Below the pieces are notes generated by a model. The model did not search any database, was not told the origin of the DNA, and worked only from the letters and a program-made list of their open reading frames with translations. Shown piece after piece: positions 40,798 to 47,310 of a stretch of 64,000 bases of DNA. This stretch comes from Escherichia phage vB_EcoM_Skers: sequence record MW748999.1; one strand, written 5' to 3'. Made by a program: the position numbers and the translations under genes. How positions within the stretch are numbered: position 1 is the first letter of the stretch; each line of letters starts with the position of its first letter.

Positions 40798-42849
40798 TTA
40801 CATTTTAAATTTATCTGGCATTGCGTCTACAGATACCAGATCAGCGATAAGCTGACGTAGAGTTGCCTTATCTGCTTTCTTACGTTCGGTTTTAGCTTCG
40901 GTAATAAAGCTGGAGAAAGACAGGTCAGAAGCAGGTTTAATAACACCTTCACGGATGAATGCATCACCGTCAGCGATCATCTCGCCAGATTCTTGTAATG
41001 CTGCCAGTTCATTTTTGTTCATAATATGTGCCTCAATGTAATAAGTTTCTTGTGAATCCGTCGATGCCGTAGCACGAGTTACCGTATCAAAGGATAGCAC
41101 AACACCGCGAGGAAGTAAAATCTCGCATTCTTTGTAAGCAAATGCTTTGTTACCTACTGGCAATACAGGGATGTTTTCCGCGCCAGCAATGGAGAAAGCA
41201 ACATTAGCGCCACCTTCACCGCGAGAGCCAGCCATAGAATCAACACCAGCAACGGCACTAGCCACGTTTGCATTCCAGCCGCCAAAAATGTTAGGTGCAA
41301 GGGAAGTGCTCACATAGTTTTTAAAGTAAAACGCTTTTTGCTTACGTGCAGTTTCCCACATTTGCGAACGGAAGTCCATACCACGATACAGAATAGTACC
41401 CGGATCAAGTTTAACGCCATAGTTAGAGAAGGCATTATCCAGTGCATCGCACATCTTGACCAATTCTTCTGGATCTGCGATGCCGTCAAACTCTTCCAGC
41501 TTACGGTCGGTTAGGAAGTTGTTCATATTGATGTATGCTGCATCGGCATATTCGCTCAACACAAAACCTTCCGCGCCCGGCAGATCAAGATCAATATCTG
41601 CCATCATTTCACCCATGTTGCTAGCAATTGCTTCAAACATACCGGAAGCAACATTACGTAGGGCATCGGTTTTAATCTGTGTGATGTGACTACGCAACAT
41701 TTCAGCTTTTACATCTGCTGGCATAGACTGGTCTACTCGATCCATTGCTATGGCAGTGATCTTGTTTTCGAATACGTCCTCGCTCATGATTTCTTTTAAG
41801 CGTTTGATTGATGCTGCGATAACTTCCGCAGACAACGGATCATATTGATCCTGAACTTTTACCAGTTCGCTTACTGCGTATTTTGCATCGGCTTCGCTTT
41901 CAAAAATAGTACGCATGAAACCATAGCGAGTGATAATATCACTTGTCCAGTCATTCAGAGAACGAGCGGTTGAACGTTCTAAGGCTTGACGATCAATCAG
42001 AGTATTAAACTGTTTCTTAGGTTCTGCTTCGGTGATATCTTCTTCCGGTTTAAGATTAATTTTTTCTGGATGATTCACATAGTCGCTGTTATAGGTCGCT
42101 TGAGTTTTCAGCATTTCTTCTTTAGTCAAACGAGATTTAGCCGCTACGCGTTGTTCTGCTTCCGCGTTTCGTTCTTCTTCTGACACAAGACTAGCCGCAT
42201 ATGCCTCATCTTTAGTCAGAGATTCACCAGTAGCCTTAGATACCCAGCGATCACCTAAATCACTTTCTACTTTAGTGAACAAGGATTCATCAAGTTTAAT
42301 CCCTTTAATCTTATCAATCGCCATCCCGCGACGCTTGACAACAACTAAAGCGATCTTTTTGCTGGTCATTACTTCCTGCTGGAATACTTCAAACTTCGGT
42401 GTACGACGCACCAAACGCTCTATAACGCGCTTAACCAGTTCGGTCTTACCCTTCATACGGGATACGTTAAAACGGAACATAACAGCGTCTAATTGCGCTT
42501 TACGGGCTGTTTCCATAACCACATCAAAAGCACTTGCCATAACTGCAATCGGGTTATCGCCTAGACCATTTTTAAGCTGTACAATACGACCGCTTTTGTT
42601 CATTTCGCACAGTACAACATGTGCGGTCTTGTCACCCATACGAATGATTTTAGGTGTTTTGTTGGTGAAGTTACAAAGACGGACAATCACATCTTTATCG
42701 CGTGTCTGTACTGCAAAAAGCTGTTTAGGATTCTGCTTAGGCTTTAAGCACTGTACCGGAGCAATACTGCCAAAGTTTTCTTCCTCTTCCGTCAACAGCC
42801 ATTTCTCGAAAGATTCAATCATTAGATCGTCGATTTCTAAGTTAAACAT
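40798..42849 (-). CDS. alt: Alt ADP-ribosyltransferase (injected head protein)
   Basis: 683 aa (T4 Alt 682 aa); C-terminal ART motifs ILYRGM, YVSTSL, KECEILLPRG; located after gene 54 as in T4. Confidence 0.85.
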   Translation of the reverse strand: MFNLEIDDLMIESFEKWLLTEEEENFGSIAPVQCLKPKQNPKQLFAVQTRDKDVIVRLCNFTNKTPKIIRMGDKTAHVVLCEMNKSGRIVQLKNGLGDNPIAVMASAFDVVMETARKAQLDAVMFRFNVSRMKGKTELVKRVIERLVRRTPKFEVFQQEVMTSKKIALVVVKRRGMAIDKIKGIKLDESLFTKVESDLGDRWVSKATGESLTKDEAYAASLVSEEERNAEAEQRVAAKSRLTKEEMLKTQATYNSDYVNHPEKINLKPEEDITEAEPKKQFNTLIDRQALERSTARSLNDWTSDIITRYGFMRTIFESEADAKYAVSELVKVQDQYDPLSAEVIAASIKRLKEIMSEDVFENKITAIAMDRVDQSMPADVKAEMLRSHITQIKTDALRNVASGMFEAIASNMGEMMADIDLDLPGAEGFVLSEYADAAYINMNNFLTDRKLEEFDGIADPEELVKMCDALDNAFSNYGVKLDPGTILYRGMDFRSQMWETARKQKAFYFKNYVSTSLAPNIFGGWNANVASAVAGVDSMAGSRGEGGANVAFSIAGAENIPVLPVGNKAFAYKECEILLPRGVVLSFDTVTRATASTDSQETYYIEAHIMNKNELAALQESGEMIADGDAFIREGVIKPASDLSFSSFITEAKTERKKADKATLRQLIADLVSVDAMPDKFKM

Positions 42850-42884
42850 TTTATATCCTCTAGTTGATAACCTATAAACCTATA

Positions 42885-42910
42885 TTTATGAAAAAGGGGC
42901 TTAACGCCCC
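42885..42910 (-). terminator. rho-independent terminator upstream of alt (ends the early small-gene transcripts)
   Basis: minus-strand reading GGGGCGTTAAGCCCC followed by TTTTTC; a CATAAATA late-promoter-like octamer lies just downstream. Confidence 0.65.
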
Positions 42911-42915
42911 ATTTA

Positions 42916-43128
42916 TTATAATGCACCATCGAGCAATTGCTCTAAGGTGTATCCTGAATAGTCTTTTTCAATCAGGATATATTTTCCTACTCGTTTAATA
43001 CAACCACGCATTTCAACGTATTCTGCGTAGTTGATGGTACGAGTTGTTCCATCTTCCAGTAATGCAGTACCGATTTCGTTAATGCGGTCATAAGTTACGT
43101 CGGTAATGATGATTTCGATGTTAGCCAT
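42916..43128 (-). CDS. hypothetical protein (70 aa)
   Basis: ORF track; preceded by PeSL-like promoter cassette. Confidence 0.5.
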   Translation of the reverse strand: MANIEIIITDVTYDRINEIGTALLEDGTTRTINYAEYVEMRGCIKRVGKYILIEKDYSGYTLEQLLDGAL

Positions 43129-43199
43129 TTGATACTCCTTAGTAGTTCGTTTCGGTATGGGTGTATTATGATATACACCCTCTGTTATGTCAACAACTT
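43129..43199 (-). promoter_or_regulatory. PeSL-like early promoter cassette
   Basis: minus-strand TTGACA - 17 nt - CATAAT; hairpin GGGTGTAT/ATACACCC around -10; leader ends AAGGAGTATCAA-ATG. Confidence 0.6.
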
Positions 43200-43379
43200 T
43201 TAGAACATTTTTGAAATTAATTCTGCTTTGATTTCGCAGAGAACATCTAAAGATTTCTCGTCACCTGCTTTTGCGGCTTCTGCTTGCATTTTTGAAATGG
43301 CTTCAATGTCAGTGCAATTATAAGCCGCTTGAACTTTAGCGATTGCGATGATTGCCGATTCGATGGTTAAGTGTTTCAT
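43200..43379 (-). CDS. hypothetical small protein (about 59 aa)
   Basis: hand-translated (MKHLTIESAIIAIAKVQAAYNCTDIEAISKMQ...); flanked by PeSL cassettes on both sides; below track cutoff. Confidence 0.4.
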   Translation of the reverse strand: MKHLTIESAIIAIAKVQAAYNCTDIEAISKMQAEAAKAGDEKSLDVLCEIKAELISKMF

Positions 43380-43447
43380 GTTTGATTCTCCTTTCGTTTC
43401 GGTATGTGTGTATTATAGGGGATCGATGATCCCCTGTCAACAACTTT
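43380..43447 (-). promoter_or_regulatory. PeSL-like early promoter cassette
   Basis: minus-strand TTGACA - GGGGATCATCGATCCCC (palindromic 17-nt spacer) - TATAAT; leader ...GGAGAATCAAAC-ATG. Confidence 0.65.
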
Positions 43448-44002
43448 TTAGTTATTTTTTAATTGCTCATCTTGCAATAGGGCAATCACATGCTGGCGAT
43501 GCTCTTCCGATTGAGGCACACCGAAAAAGTTTGTTTTGTAGAAATACTCTAATCGGTCTTCTCGTGTGCTCTCTTCCATCATGATCGCTGGTAGTCCGAG
43601 ATTTCGGAAACGTCGCTTTTCTGCTGGAGTAAAATCACTGTAATACAACATAGAATCATCATTACCAGCAATGCTAAACTCATCCTTCATAAAGGAGAAT
43701 ATTGCGTTTAAACGCTGTTTACCGTCCACGATTTCGATCTCATAGCGAGAGCCATCATCAATCTTAGCCATTGCGATAGCACCAACCGGAAAATCATTAA
43801 TAAGGTTTTCGATAAACATACGTTTGTTTTCTGTGTCCCATACTAAAGGACGCTGATAATCTGGGTTCATGTTGATATAGCCATCTTCTAACCATGCATC
43901 ATAAACAGAGATGACAAAGTTTTTAGTATTGGTATAGTAACGGCGTTTAGGCGTTAAACGGTTCATGTTATAGTCTCCTGAATGGATCATCACGTAAATC
44001 AA
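43448..44002 (-). CDS. DUF262 / ParB-Srx-superfamily protein (DGxQR motif)
   Basis: motifs PDYQRPLVWDTENKRMFIENLINDFPVG and IVDGKQRLNAI match the DUF262/ParB-like N-terminal domain pattern; true start may be an internal Met near 43966. Confidence 0.6.
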   Translation of the reverse strand: MIYVMIHSGDYNMNRLTPKRRYYTNTKNFVISVYDAWLEDGYINMNPDYQRPLVWDTENKRMFIENLINDFPVGAIAMAKIDDGSRYEIEIVDGKQRLNAIFSFMKDEFSIAGNDDSMLYYSDFTPAEKRRFRNLGLPAIMMEESTREDRLEYFYKTNFFGVPQSEEHRQHVIALLQDEQLKNN

Positions 44003-44300
44003 TATCTTTTAAGAACTCCTCCCATGAATGGCGGATATTGTTCTTAATTCTCCAGATAAGAGCAGGGATTGAACGCTCTCCCATCTGGAAGTATGGATCA
44101 TATGATCCATATGCCCAATATGCTACTACAATTCCACAATCAGCGCAATAATATTCTATTTCACTTGCTGGCGACCAAAGTCCATCAATATGATCGGTGA
44201 TCTTGCTTTCGATGTTATGGCTATGACAATCAGGGCAACGGATGCAATGACCTTGTTTATCGTAATTTGACGTTAGAGAATACTTAAACAATCTCATCAT
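43968..44300 (-). CDS. hypothetical zinc-ribbon protein (110 aa)
   Basis: two CxxC pairs (CIRCPDC ... CADCG); co-oriented and overlapping neighbours. Confidence 0.5.
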   Translation of the reverse strand: MMRLFKYSLTSNYDKQGHCIRCPDCHSHNIESKITDHIDGLWSPASEIEYYCADCGIVVAYWAYGSYDPYFQMGERSIPALIWRIKNNIRHSWEEFLKDIDLRDDPFRRL

Positions 44301-45013
44301 AGATCCTTATTTGCTTCAAATACTGCCTTTGCGAATCCTCGCGGGGTAAGTGACCTTATAGTCTTTGTTTTCGTTCCTTTCCCGCCTAGCTTAGAATGCT
44401 GTTTACTGTACCCTTTATTAATCTGCAAAGGTTTCTTTTCTGGCATTATAAAGCCTTGTCCGGTCCATAAGCAAGTCTTTTTCGGGTACATATCACGGGC
44501 GGCAATATACTCAGGAAACGTAGGATGCTTATCATCTTCCGGCAAATAACCGCCATATTCCCACGGATGGAACATATAATCAGGCTTACGCCACATGCTA
44601 GAGATAACGCTTACAGGATTCTCTATCATGTAGGGAACTCCTAGCCATTCACCCAAATACGCGGTTATTTTGGCTGCCCTTACATCATGAACTTGAATCA
44701 ATGGTCCTTGTTCTCGTTTCTTTCGTTCAAAGTGCGCAGCGCCACTAACAGCTAAATTGGTGCACGGTGGGAATGCAAAGATAATATCCGGTTTCCCCCA
44801 TTCAAGGTCCATTGCTCTTTCCAGCCAGTTCAAATCAATCCAGGTGTTTACATAGGTAATGTTTGGATGTTCAAATCGGGTATTATACTTTTTGTATGTG
44901 CCGTGGTCGGCGTCATCCGCATTAAAGCAGACTACCTTATGACCTGCTTTAGCCCATTCTAGCCCCATTATCCCCGATCCGTCAAAGTTGCAGAATATTA
45001 ATTTTTGTTTCAT
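44297..45013 (-). CDS. truncated DNA C5-cytosine methyltransferase-like protein (238 aa; motifs I, IV, VI only)
   Basis: FCNFDGSG (motif I F-x-G-x-G-like), FPPCTNLAVSGA (motif IV Pro-Cys), MIENP (motif VI ENV-like); no recognisable target-recognition domain or motifs VIII-X. Confidence 0.55.
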   Translation of the reverse strand: MKQKLIFCNFDGSGIMGLEWAKAGHKVVCFNADDADHGTYKKYNTRFEHPNITYVNTWIDLNWLERAMDLEWGKPDIIFAFPPCTNLAVSGAAHFERKKREQGPLIQVHDVRAAKITAYLGEWLGVPYMIENPVSVISSMWRKPDYMFHPWEYGGYLPEDDKHPTFPEYIAARDMYPKKTCLWTGQGFIMPEKKPLQINKGYSKQHSKLGGKGTKTKTIRSLTPRGFAKAVFEANKDL

Positions 45014-45255
45014 ATACGCCCCTTTAATCCAACACAGATTTTAGAAGGTTCTTTGCCGTGCCACATTAAGTAAAGTCCGTTAATGCGGCCTTGTTTTGTA
45101 TATGATTCTTTTCTGATCTTCTTATAGTGTCGTGCTTCCTCAACCGATTGTTTAGAATACCAATCATAAAGGAAGAGGCACAAAGGCCAACCATTAGCGG
45201 CCTTAATGCAGTTATTAAGAAATTCCTTATTGCGTTTAATTAATTTTCTTTTCAC
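45010..45255 (-). CDS. hypothetical basic protein (81 aa)
   Basis: ORF track; start overlaps upstream gene stop. Confidence 0.45.
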   Translation of the reverse strand: MKRKLIKRNKEFLNNCIKAANGWPLCLFLYDWYSKQSVEEARHYKKIRKESYTKQGRINGLYLMWHGKEPSKICVGLKGRI

Positions 45256-45503
45256 GCTGCCCCCATTGGTTTGATAGTAACAGAATCTAAAAGACCTTTG
45301 TTAGCCAGTTCGCGGCAAGTTTTCAGATCCGCAACTTCCCAGCCAGCCGCAATCAGGTTATCAATGAGGCTGTTAGCAACTTCTTCGCTCATGAAAGAGC
45401 ACTGTTTGCCGATGGTGTAGCGTACACGCTGTAATTTCAGTTTACGGAAGCCTTTAACGTTCAGGTCTTTAGCGATTTTCTTTGCGGTTTCGATGTTAGC
45501 CAT
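45252..45503 (-). CDS. hypothetical protein (83 aa), first gene of a five-gene operon
   Basis: ORF track; directly downstream of a PeSL-like promoter cassette. Confidence 0.5.
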   Translation of the reverse strand: MANIETAKKIAKDLNVKGFRKLKLQRVRYTIGKQCSFMSEEVANSLIDNLIAAGWEVADLKTCRELANKGLLDSVTIKPMGAA

Positions 45504-45586
45504 TGTTTGATTCTCCTAAGTGGTATCTCGTCTTGATGGTTGTATTGTAGGGGAGTTATCCTCCCCTGTCAACACTTTTTATAAAA
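45504..45586 (-). promoter_or_regulatory. PeSL-like early promoter cassette
   Basis: minus-strand TTGACA - GGGGAGGATAACTCCCC (palindromic spacer) - TACAAT; leader ...TAGGAGAATCAAACA-ATG. Confidence 0.6.
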
Positions 45587-45754
45587 TCATTTGTTAATTT
45601 CTGGTGCGTTGCTAGGATAGTAACCTTCTTTAACTCCGAGGTATTTCGCAACCATCCCTACAATCTTCTGTGCTACTACAATGTCAAATTTCAGATAATC
45701 TTCGCCGTGGGTTTCAATGATATATGCTTCACATGCTGCTTTCGTCTCGAACAT
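45587..45754 (-). CDS. hypothetical small protein, copy A of duplicated 55-aa gene (MFETKAACEAY...)
   Basis: ORF track 45587..45802, start placed at internal Met directly after the PeSL leader; about 85 percent identical at protein level to hand-translated copy B. Confidence 0.55.
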   Translation of the reverse strand: MFETKAACEAYIIETHGEDYLKFDIVVAQKIVGMVAKYLGVKEGYYPSNAPEINK

Positions 45755-45829
45755 TTTGATTCTCCTATATCTCGTTGGTATGTGTGTAGTATAGGGGATC
45801 ACCGATCCCCGTCAACAACTTTTTTAAAA
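45755..45829 (-). promoter_or_regulatory. PeSL-like early promoter cassette
   Basis: minus-strand TTGACG - GGGATCGGTGATCCCC - TATACT; leader ACACACATACCAACGAGATATAGGAGAATCAAA-ATG. Confidence 0.65.
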
Positions 45830-46111
45830 TTATTCGTGATTAGTTTCGATGTTGTGCATTTTGCACCAGTTCAGCCAATCGCCCAGATCCTGATAGTTGA
45901 TGCTTTTATCTGCTGCCATCGTTTTTGTCTTGATACCCATATGTGCGTTATGAGTAAGCATTTTTACAGTGAACTCGATTTTATCGCCTTTAGCTTTAAC
46001 ATCAACCAGTTTGGTCCACTGGCTACCAGCGCCGCGAATGTTCATACCAACGATGTTTCCGATGTATGCTTCTTTGTTTTTCAGGATTTCGGTTGCTTTG
46101 ATGAATTTCAT
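45830..46111 (-). CDS. hypothetical protein (93 aa)
   Basis: ORF track; PeSL cassette immediately upstream. Confidence 0.5.
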   Translation of the reverse strand: MKFIKATEILKNKEAYIGNIVGMNIRGAGSQWTKLVDVKAKGDKIEFTVKMLTHNAHMGIKTKTMAADKSINYQDLGDWLNWCKMHNIETNHE

Positions 46112-46183
46112 TGTTTGATTCTCCAGTTCGTTTCGGTATGGGTGTATTATGCTATGTTCTTACTTTGGTGTCAACAACTTTTT
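46112..46183 (-). promoter_or_regulatory. PeSL-like early promoter cassette
   Basis: minus-strand TTGACA followed by spacer and CATAAT; leader CACCCATACCGAAACGAACTGGAGAATCAAACA-ATG. Confidence 0.6.
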
Positions 46184-46453
46184 TTAGATATTTTCAGAAA
46201 TAAATTTTAAAACTTGACGTAAATGTTTCTCATCTTTGATAGTCGCCGGAAGTTCTTCTTTTACTTCCTGTGCAAGATAGATATTTCCGTTCCAAGTGAA
46301 AGATCCGTCTTCGTTTACGCGATAGCTGAACATCCACTCGCAATCATTTTCGATTTCATATACACACAGAAGGGTGTAATCGTTAAAGCTATTGATTTCA
46401 AGGTCGAAGCCGTGGCGTTTTGCAAAGTTGGTAGTGGTTTTAGTCAGTGCCAT
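46184..46453 (-). CDS. hypothetical protein (89 aa)
   Basis: ORF track; PeSL cassette immediately upstream. Confidence 0.5.
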   Translation of the reverse strand: MALTKTTTNFAKRHGFDLEINSFNDYTLLCVYEIENDCEWMFSYRVNEDGSFTWNGNIYLAQEVKEELPATIKDEKHLRQVLKFISENI

Positions 46454-46530
46454 TGTTTGATTCTCCTAAGTGGTATCTCGTTTCGATGTGTGTATTATGC
46501 TATAGGCGTGATCTGGTGTCAACAACTTTT
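46454..46530 (-). promoter_or_regulatory. PeSL-like early promoter cassette
   Basis: minus-strand TTGACA - 17 nt - CATAAT; leader ...CGAAACGAGATACCACTTAGGAGAATCAAACA-ATG. Confidence 0.6.
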
Positions 46531-47229: not shown

Positions 47230-47310
47230 AATTTGATTCTCCTAGTTAGAAAGTGTATCTCGTTTCGATGGGTGTATTATGCTATACACCCGATCTTATG
47301 TCAACACTTT
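47230..47310 (-). promoter_or_regulatory. PeSL-like early promoter cassette
   Basis: minus-strand TTGACA - 17 nt - CATAAT, hairpin GGGTGTATAGCATAATACACCC enclosing the -10; leader ...CTAACTAGGAGAATCAAATT-ATG. Confidence 0.6.

Follow-up and report, generated by a model that had tools for sequence, protein, structure and literature searches.

Does a cytosine-methylase-like gene whose product lacks a target-recognition domain (TRD), and which lies in a tight run with genes for a zinc-ribbon and a DUF262 protein, belong to one DNA-modification or modified-DNA-sensing system split over several genes, or does it work alone among unrelated neighbours? The question is raised by positions 43448–45503 of a 64,000-nucleotide stretch of Escherichia phage vB_EcoM_Skers (MW748999.1; the whole stretch is hereafter the window), where the minus strand carries five tightly packed genes, here g1 to g5, that correspond to RB49p190, p189.1, p189, p188 and p187. 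Our answer is that the region is probably an early unit in a hyperplastic region, bounded by promoter-early stem-loops (PeSLs) and made up of five independently acquired accessory genes, with g3 encoding an autonomous orphan C5-cytosine DNA methyltransferase. This reading draws on the sequence and on analogy with a characterised orthologue. The five genes are as follows.

45252–45503, minus strand: g1, 83 aa, pI 9.5, RB49p190; PHROG 14908, function unknown; restricted to Krischvirus.
45010–45255, minus strand: g2, 81 aa, GTG start, pI 10.0, RB49p189.1; PHROG 7065, function unknown.
44297–45013, minus strand: g3, 238 aa, RB49p189; putative mini Dcm-like C5-cytosine DNA methyltransferase, PHROG 757.
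43968–44300, minus strand: g4, 110-aa zinc ribbon, RB49p188; PHROG 2993, function unknown.
43448–43966, minus strand: g5, 172 aa, RB49p187; stand-alone DUF262 / ParB-Srx-fold domain.

The g3 protein matched PHROG 757, "DNA methyltransferase", with an E value of 8e-91, its residues 1–237 aligning with positions 12–220 of the 247-position profile. Homologues of this type formed 7,314 clusters (clustered at 90%) in a large protein database, essentially all of 225–250 aa, and tblastn detected g3 homologues in 1,520 of 50,697 phage records. Besides many more, these records include T1-like Drexlerviridae, Webervirus, Dhillonvirus, Vequintavirus and temperate phages of the N15-like and mEp021-like kinds. 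Because nearly all family members are of this length, g3 is of normal size, and its description in the initial annotation as a truncated C5-methyltransferase-like protein has to be given up. An alignment of 52 family members contained 40 invariant columns, including FxGSG, PPCT, ENP, KKT, LGGK and IRS..R. The signatures noted before in the 238-aa protein, motif I (F10-D-G-S-G14), motif IV (P82-P-C84-T) and motif VI (E131-N-P133), are thus real: F10/G12/S13/G14, P82-P83-C84-T85, E131-N132-P133, K178 and T180 were invariant, C84, E131, K178 and K179 were invariant or nearly so, and the basic C-terminal block LGGK..KTK.IRSLTPRG was conserved. Codon differences between Krischvirus isolates were mostly synonymous both in g3 (19 synonymous, 2 non-synonymous) and in g5 (6–10 synonymous, 0–3 non-synonymous), indicating that these two genes are under selection.

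An AlphaFold2 model of g3 built on the family alignment (predicted local distance difference test score 91.4, predicted template-modelling score 0.90) showed a seven-stranded Rossmann-like domain followed by three C-terminal helices, and the structures listed for this model were a C5-carboxymethyltransferase, the prophage methylase 3g7u, DNMT3A, DNMT1, M.HhaI, EhMeth, M.MpeI and M.HaeIII. Searches of NCBIfam, and of PDB chain sequences with either the single sequence or the 52-sequence profile, gave no match; the placement of g3 came only from fold comparison and PHROGs. PHROG 757 membership, the model and the three motifs agree with the C5-methyltransferase fold proposed earlier, that is, the fold of a PF00145-type catalytic domain in which motifs I, IV and VI are present. 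A K178-K179-T-C strand replaces motif VIII and a basic loop (186–213) replaces the TRD. Since these ~28 residues are all that separates the motif-VIII-like strand (180–185, KKTCLW) from the C-terminal helices, the earlier statement that the TRD is missing is correct, in the model as in the alignment. The structural check on motifs VIII–X and the TRD therefore gave a divided result, in which the TRD and canonical motif VIII are missing and a motif IX/X-like C-terminal IRSLTPRGFAKAV helix is present. As modelled, g3 has its nearest structural analogue in DNMT3, the C5-methyltransferase with the smallest TRD. Two-subunit C5-methyltransferases of the M.AquI / M.EcoHK31I type obtain their TRD or motifs IX–X from a second polypeptide; this arrangement was not found here: g3 has its own IX/X-like helix, no neighbour was conserved across 80 loci of the family, and g4 matched zinc-ribbon models only.

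The experimental anchor for the family is a protein of Hanrivervirus K42, a phage 95% identical to KarlJaspers/Bas06. Mutants of K42 that escape retron Ec86 all disrupt a 711-bp gene, "dcm"; this gene, expressed alone, was toxic only with the retron present; and mass spectrometry coupled to liquid chromatography (LC-MS) detected high 5-methylcytosine (5mC) on purified Ec86 multicopy single-stranded DNA (msDNA) with wild-type K42 Dcm but not with its C82A/E128A/K175A/K176A quadruple mutant (bioRxiv 10.1101/2023.08.16.553469). The authors of that study modelled K42 Dcm on DNMT3A (bioRxiv 10.1101/2023.08.16.553469), and later papers accept methylation of msDNA by phage Dcm as the trigger of Retron-Eco1. 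The orthologue in Hanrivervirus aaroes, also a 711-bp gene (236 aa), shares 56% full-length identity with g3 (E 1e-92), and in it C82 is the cysteine of PPC, E128 the glutamate of ENP, and K175 and K176 form the KK pair, equivalent to C84, E131, K178 and K179 of g3. The residues required in K42 Dcm thus have one-to-one counterparts in g3. Because K42 Dcm was active when expressed alone, the family has direct evidence of DNA C5-methylation without a partner protein. The 5mC and its dependence on catalytic residues were observed by others on the orthologue; from these we infer by analogy the activity of the RB49-type protein, its target sequence and an anti-restriction benefit.

If g3 is such an autonomous methyltransferase, host sigma-70 polymerase would transcribe it straight after infection, and its complete catalytic Rossmann domain, dependent on S-adenosylmethionine, would be brought to DNA by contacts of the short basic loop and the C-terminal helix. 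The target cytosine would be flipped out, Cys84 would attack C6, Glu131 would protonate N3, and the methyl group of S-adenosylmethionine would be transferred to C5. Acting at a limited set of sites, the enzyme would leave sparse 5mC on phage DNA as it replicates, with host DNA marked incidentally, and would cause no bulk replacement of a base. Protection from some host restriction enzymes is a plausible benefit, and a known cost is that 5mC made by such methylases can be sensed by retron Ec86/Eco1. The remaining genes, g1, g2, g4 and g5, would be co-transcribed with g3 yet functionally separate from it.

Several observations weigh against g3 being an active methyltransferase of this kind. Pfam PF00145 matched residues 10–100 only, at 15.7 bits against a cut-off of 22 bits, and the QxRxR of canonical motif VIII is missing. 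Both HpaII and NheI cut RB49 DNA, which has served as an unmodified-cytosine control (PMC4041780). A 2026 study found no detectable modified nucleoside by high-performance liquid chromatography–mass spectrometry in hydrolysed virion DNA of Krischvirus phage TB34, which was also not restricted by BrxU, though BrxU cuts 5mC DNA (PMC13390438); the TB34 and RB49 data would also fit packaged DNA with little methylation or none. The CCWGG target of K42 Dcm was assumed, by comparison with host Dcm and on the basis of msDNA mutants (bioRxiv 10.1101/2023.08.16.553469), and we found no measured methylation motif for the PHROG 757 family in the literature. E. coli B, a native carrier of Ec86, is routinely used to propagate Krischviruses, RB49 and the MIZ isolates among them. 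Finally, in the BASEL study the methyltransferase genes of phages bore no simple relation to resistance against restriction, so that an anti-restriction benefit is put forward here tentatively.

These data bear on the amount and the sites of methylation. TB34 carries the g1–g5 operon at 97.7% identity, and the lack of a modified nucleoside in its DNA, combined with the cutting of RB49 DNA by HpaII and NheI, excludes bulk replacement or dense methylation of cytosine. The same results are compatible with sparse, site-specific 5mC: by a base-composition estimate, a five-base site like CCWGG would mark ~0.5% of the cytosines if the genome has 164 kb and 40% G+C. The TB34 of the virion-DNA study was grown on a dcm-positive host (PMC13390438). 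Growth on Ec86-bearing E. coli B means that g3 may not methylate the Ec86 site or that the phage counters the retron; that is, the RB49-type enzyme may differ in specificity from K42 Dcm, native Ec86 may be too weak, or the phage may have a countermeasure.

The most prominent neighbour of the methylase gene is g5. Its product matched PF03235 (GmrSD_N; E 4.8e-20 and 72.9 bits, the cut-off being 33.2) and models of defence systems, Menshen NsnA (E 2e-20) and PD-T4-2_A among them. The DUF262 motifs I–III, defined as QRxxxW, DGxQR and FxxxN (PMC12065111), occur as Y37-Q-R-x-x-V-W43, D81-G-K-Q-R85 and F142-x-x-x-N146 and are invariant in g5 and its relatives, as is a GVPQSEEH block; together with the PF03235 match they confirm the identification of g5 as a DUF262-type ParB/Srx-fold protein. 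No nuclease or DNA-binding domain was found: g5 has no DUF1524/HNH region and ends at residue 172, one helix past motif III. It might then be what is left of a GmrSD gene truncated when the downstream PeSL was inserted, a candidate that was rejected because the orthologues RB43 ORF182c (178 aa) and gp179 of Klebsiella phage Matisse (175 aa) match g5 end to end at 35–38% identity, keep its C-terminal "NF.GVPQSEEH" block and stop soon after, and so are full-length at this size. A word-indexed homologue search returned only 7 proteins, and a profile search and exhaustive HMMER were needed. The profile search returned 2,870 relatives, among which the nearest were proteins of 160–190 aa from T4-like phages of Enterobacterales, and exhaustive HMMER gave 441 cluster representatives at E<1e-10. 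Most of the nearest 150 representatives had ~160–190 aa, or ~250–295 aa with an N-terminal extension, and almost none left room for a C-terminal nuclease domain. By its sequence, then, g5 is predicted to be a complete, selected, effector-less domain of the ParB/Srx nucleoside triphosphate (NTP)-binding fold, belonging to a stand-alone family. We found no function for phage DUF262-only proteins in the literature.

In ~10 Slopekvirus/Pseudotevenvirus loci, a ~300–320-aa protein overlaps the stop of the mini-DUF262 gene (L083, 4004–4918, Matisse gp178; L107, 4504–5463); RB43 has only a 41-aa remnant at that place, and the protein resembles no g1–g5 product. The 304-aa gene 3' of the DUF262 gene in Matisse and the 107–112-aa gene 5' of it were rejected as counterparts of g4 or as a nuclease partner, as BLASTP showed no similarity to g4 and neither is conserved.

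A different role for g5 would be counter-defence, in which the effector-less protein, as a copy of the sensor/dimerisation domain, titrates or poisons GmrSD-type sensors like a decoy (BrxU, SspE, NsnA/Menshen, PD-T4-2) and is co-transcribed with a Dcm-like methylase so that 5mC-marked phage DNA escapes type IV restriction. We regard this as improbable, even though g5 matches models of such systems and has no effector of its own. Elsewhere, its family shows no linkage to methylase genes, as described below; the literature describes a DUF262-only protein, "GmrS1", that is a positive component of a host type IV enzyme, so that an effector-less DUF262 protein need not be inhibitory; and g5 could equally be a regulator of the DndB type or a nucleotide-metabolism enzyme.

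Non-linkage is the evidence that most directly separates five independent genes from one system. Among the 50,697 phage records, g1 occurred in 56, g2 in 169, g3 in 1,520, g4 in 279 and g5 in 327, counts spanning more than one order of magnitude, and all five distributions met only in ~56 Krischvirus genomes. On the methylase side, we took 80 viral contigs with a g3 relative and flanks of ±4 kb; not one of the 79 loci outside Krischvirus had a DUF262 or zinc-ribbon gene within 4 kb (tblastn, then profile hidden Markov models at E<=1), and the only contig that matched either was a single Krischvirus contig. On the DUF262 side, a methylase or zinc-ribbon gene was near none of the 78 non-Krischvirus loci among 80 contigs with a mini-DUF262 relative, only two Krischvirus contigs being positive. 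When same-strand neighbours within 2.5 kb of the methylase were clustered, no family occurred in more than 28 of the 80 loci, and no neighbour family occurred in more than 11 of the 78 mini-DUF262 loci. No conserved methylase partner that might act as a TRD in trans was present, the commonest neighbour reaching the 28 of 80 loci just given. The recurring functional neighbour of the Dcm-like gene was instead a Dam-type N6-adenine methylase (DMAASD...NPPYSDP), found within 2.5 kb in ~24 of 80 loci (L003–L081), suggesting that T1-like and related siphoviruses carry small "methylation islands".

These results make it very unlikely that the operon encodes one modification or sensing machine in which the methylase provides catalysis, the zinc ribbon targets it in trans and the DUF262 protein serves as an NTP-dependent sensor or loader. 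Such a machine would account for the translational coupling by 4-nt overlaps, for a gene order kept in all ~56 Krischvirus records and for a methylase that really has no TRD, and ParB-fold/methyltransferase fusions are enriched in phages (PMC12704722). On this last point the initial annotation, which held that ParB-like domains are often fused to or paired with phage methyltransferases, was right as to the fusions; the published ones, however, join PF02195 to N6/N4 methylases and not DUF262 to C5 methylases (PMC12704722). Beyond the absence of linkage in both directions, the K42 orthologue methylates when expressed alone, phage kaaroe has an additional open reading frame (ORF) between g4 and g5, and hyperplastic regions shuffled by PeSLs accumulate unrelated ORFans. 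The idea of a module split over several genes is thus not supported by the linkage counts and the separate distributions. Rather, the differing distributions, the two-way non-linkage and the kaaroe ORF indicate that the operon is an accretion of independent accessory genes, in which g4 and g5 are unrelated passengers beside the methylase. Accretion inside a PeSL cassette is what the PeSL model predicts.

The operon also bears on an unexplained modification in a close relative. Durham phage SAP, a Krischvirus 99.96% identical to TB34, has glucosyl-hydroxymethyl-deoxycytidine (glucosyl-hmC) without a known pathway, and was reported to be fully modified where TB34 was unmodified (PMC13390438). 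Over the 3-kb locus, the five coding sequences of SAP and TB34 are identical, and the two phages differ only by a 1-bp indel and by the 79-bp PeSL 3' of g5 (43380–43447), which is tandemly duplicated in SAP (L090, 382–460, against L091). As both phages encode identical g1–g5 proteins, the operon cannot explain the glucosyl-hmC of SAP and was rejected as its source. A comparison of SAP and TB34 based on single-nucleotide polymorphisms could overlook such structural differences elsewhere in both genomes. We give hardly any credence to g3 adding another group (hydroxymethyl, carboxymethyl or other adduct) or acting on free nucleotides or RNA rather than DNA, and the suggestion that it is a non-canonical pyrimidine modifier and not a methylase is not supported, since the orthologue family to which it is linked by 56% identity makes 5mC by LC-MS and TB34, with this operon, shows no non-canonical nucleoside in virion DNA.

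The setting of these genes is that of an early expression unit. The stretch 43200–45800 (2.6 kb) is 97–98% identical to ~55 complete genomes of Krischvirus, the RB49-like "pseudo-T-even" coliphages, and its counterpart in RB49 (114793–117393; 97.8% identity) has the identical set of five coding sequences. The RB49 RefSeq record labels p189 "DNA methyltransferase", other records name it "Dcm" or "putative C-5 cytosine DNA methylase", and p187 is a "DUF262 domain protein" in one Krischvirus record; the gene calls are therefore not new. The ORF coordinates and a terminator scan support five minus-strand ORFs with no internal terminator, as first described, no minus-strand terminator-like site being found between 45544 and 43448. 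That the genes overlap holds for the first three junctions, g1/g2 (GTGA), g2/g3 (ATGA) and g3/g4 (ATGA), each by 4 nt, and not for g4/g5: the most likely start of g5 is the ATG at 43966, giving 172 rather than 184 aa and no overlap with g4, because GGAG precedes it, it lies 1 nt past the g4 stop and it is the start annotated in RB49. An Rfam scan of 42800–46200 and a transfer RNA scan of the whole window gave nothing meaningful. The additional ORF of kaaroe (contig L088, 1067–1246) has 59 aa and is seen in some Krischvirus isolates, and isolates ELT3, ELT4, FL04 and FL37 have 200–900 bp of additional sequence inside the homologous stretch. Two further features flank the genes.

45504–45586, minus strand: upstream PeSL, with an A-rich UP region, a -35 element TTGACA at 45572–45567 and a -10 element TACAAT at 45549–45544.
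43380–43447, minus strand: downstream PeSL, TTGACA-GGGGATCATCGATCCCC-TATAAT, beginning a few bases past the g5 stop and predicted to drive the next gene (59 aa, 43379–43200).

In the upstream PeSL the 17-nt spacer between -35 and -10 contains a GGGGAGG...CCTCCCC stem, the RNA fold has -20.5 kcal/mol (z -3.7), and the Shine-Dalgarno sequence AGGAGAATCAAAC stands immediately 5' of the g1 ATG. The window holds 12 such promoter matches against 1.5 expected, and this PeSL aligns with four others there, all five over ~90 bp. Sigma-70 -35 and -10 elements, a G-run/C-run stem-loop, an AT-rich upstream tract, Shine-Dalgarno sequence plus ATG and repetition in the genome are thus all present, and the promoter elements, hairpin and alignment substantiate the earlier naming of this cassette as a PeSL. 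With a second PeSL just after the g5 stop, the unit has such a boundary at either end. RB49 and phi1 are the phages for which PeSLs were defined, as strong early promoters plus terminators that shuffle ORFan cassettes in hyperplastic regions, and lacZ fusions demonstrated promoter and terminator activity of other RB49/phi1 PeSLs (PMC2839356). By these elements 43448–45503 is a PeSL-driven early polycistronic unit whose promoter activity is predicted. The tandem duplication of the downstream PeSL in SAP is a PeSL-mediated rearrangement of the type described in the Arbiol and Comeau papers cited below. A second class of near-consensus early promoters (43165–43193, 46146–46174, 46494–46522 and 47276–47304, minus strand) alternates with the PeSLs; it reads TTGACA-17-CATAAT with a conserved "ATAGCATAAT" or similar, and its spacer has no G/C hairpin.

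The three small neighbours have separate histories. In g4 the cysteines C19xxC22xxC25...C52xxC55 and a weak Zn_Ribbon_TF match accord with the CxxC...CxxC zinc ribbon read initially; its homologues in Nonagvirus 9g (gp22, 44% identity) and Felixounavirus stand in unrelated contexts and do not adjoin a methylase. The first two genes do encode small basic proteins, as first noted (pI 9.5 and 10.0). Confined to Krischvirus (56 records), g1 has a weak PADLOC match (E 2.6e-5) to residues 722–785 of the UG35 defence-associated reverse transcriptase model, which may reflect a shared small domain or chance. Distant homologues of g2 occur in other T4-like and T5-like phages (169 records), and amino-acid changes between isolates are about as common in g2 as silent ones, indicating relaxed constraint.

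Gene structure, fold, motif conservation, family membership and non-linkage, which we observed at this locus, alter its annotation more than the catalogue of phage enzymes: g3 is a further member of a characterised, very common family, and the cassette architecture has already been published for RB49-type phages. What was taken for a "truncated" methylase has the usual form for its family, which is among the commonest of phage methyltransferases and is anchored experimentally as the trigger of Ec86/Eco1. RB49-type phages serve as "unmodified-cytosine T4-like" controls in work on CRISPR and type IV restriction, yet early expression of a C5-methylase in them is probable. The glucosyl-hmC phenotype of SAP loses the g1–g5 operon as a candidate, and the role of effector-less DUF262 proteins in lytic phages is a loose thread. 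The practical value lies in a corrected annotation and in corrected expectations for the operon.

Compared with known systems, g3 most resembles the Dcm of K42/KarlJaspers: both belong to PHROG 757, have similar lengths (238 and 236 aa) and equivalent catalytic Cys, Glu and KK residues, and lack a conserved partner. K42/KarlJaspers Dcm, however, comes from a T1-type siphovirus (Drexlerviridae), whereas g3 comes from a T4-type myovirus and lies inside a PeSL cassette, and K42 Dcm triggers Ec86 whereas Krischviruses plate on E. coli B despite its native Ec86. Relative to the DNMT3A/DNMT3B catalytic domain, M.HhaI, M.HaeIII and M.MpeI, g3 is ~90–150 residues shorter and has no TRD; relative to canonical C5-methyltransferases it has KKTC in place of the QxRxR of motif VIII and falls below the PF00145 gathering score and below sequence detection in the PDB. 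GmrSD-family enzymes (BrxU, SspE, Eco94GmrSD), NsnA of Menshen, PD-T4-2 A and DndB share with g5 the DUF262 ParB/Srx NTPase fold and its motifs, but g5 is the 172-aa domain alone, without a DUF1524/HNH nuclease or ParBDB DNA-binding domain, and is carried by lytic phages, not within a defence island. The PeSL and ORFan cassettes of RB49 and phi1 (Arbiol et al. 2010, PMC2839356; Comeau et al. 2014, PMC4122927) have the published architecture that is also seen here, with a PeSL on each flank; those described mostly contain one or two ORFans, whereas the present cassette contains five genes, one of them with an assignable enzymatic function.

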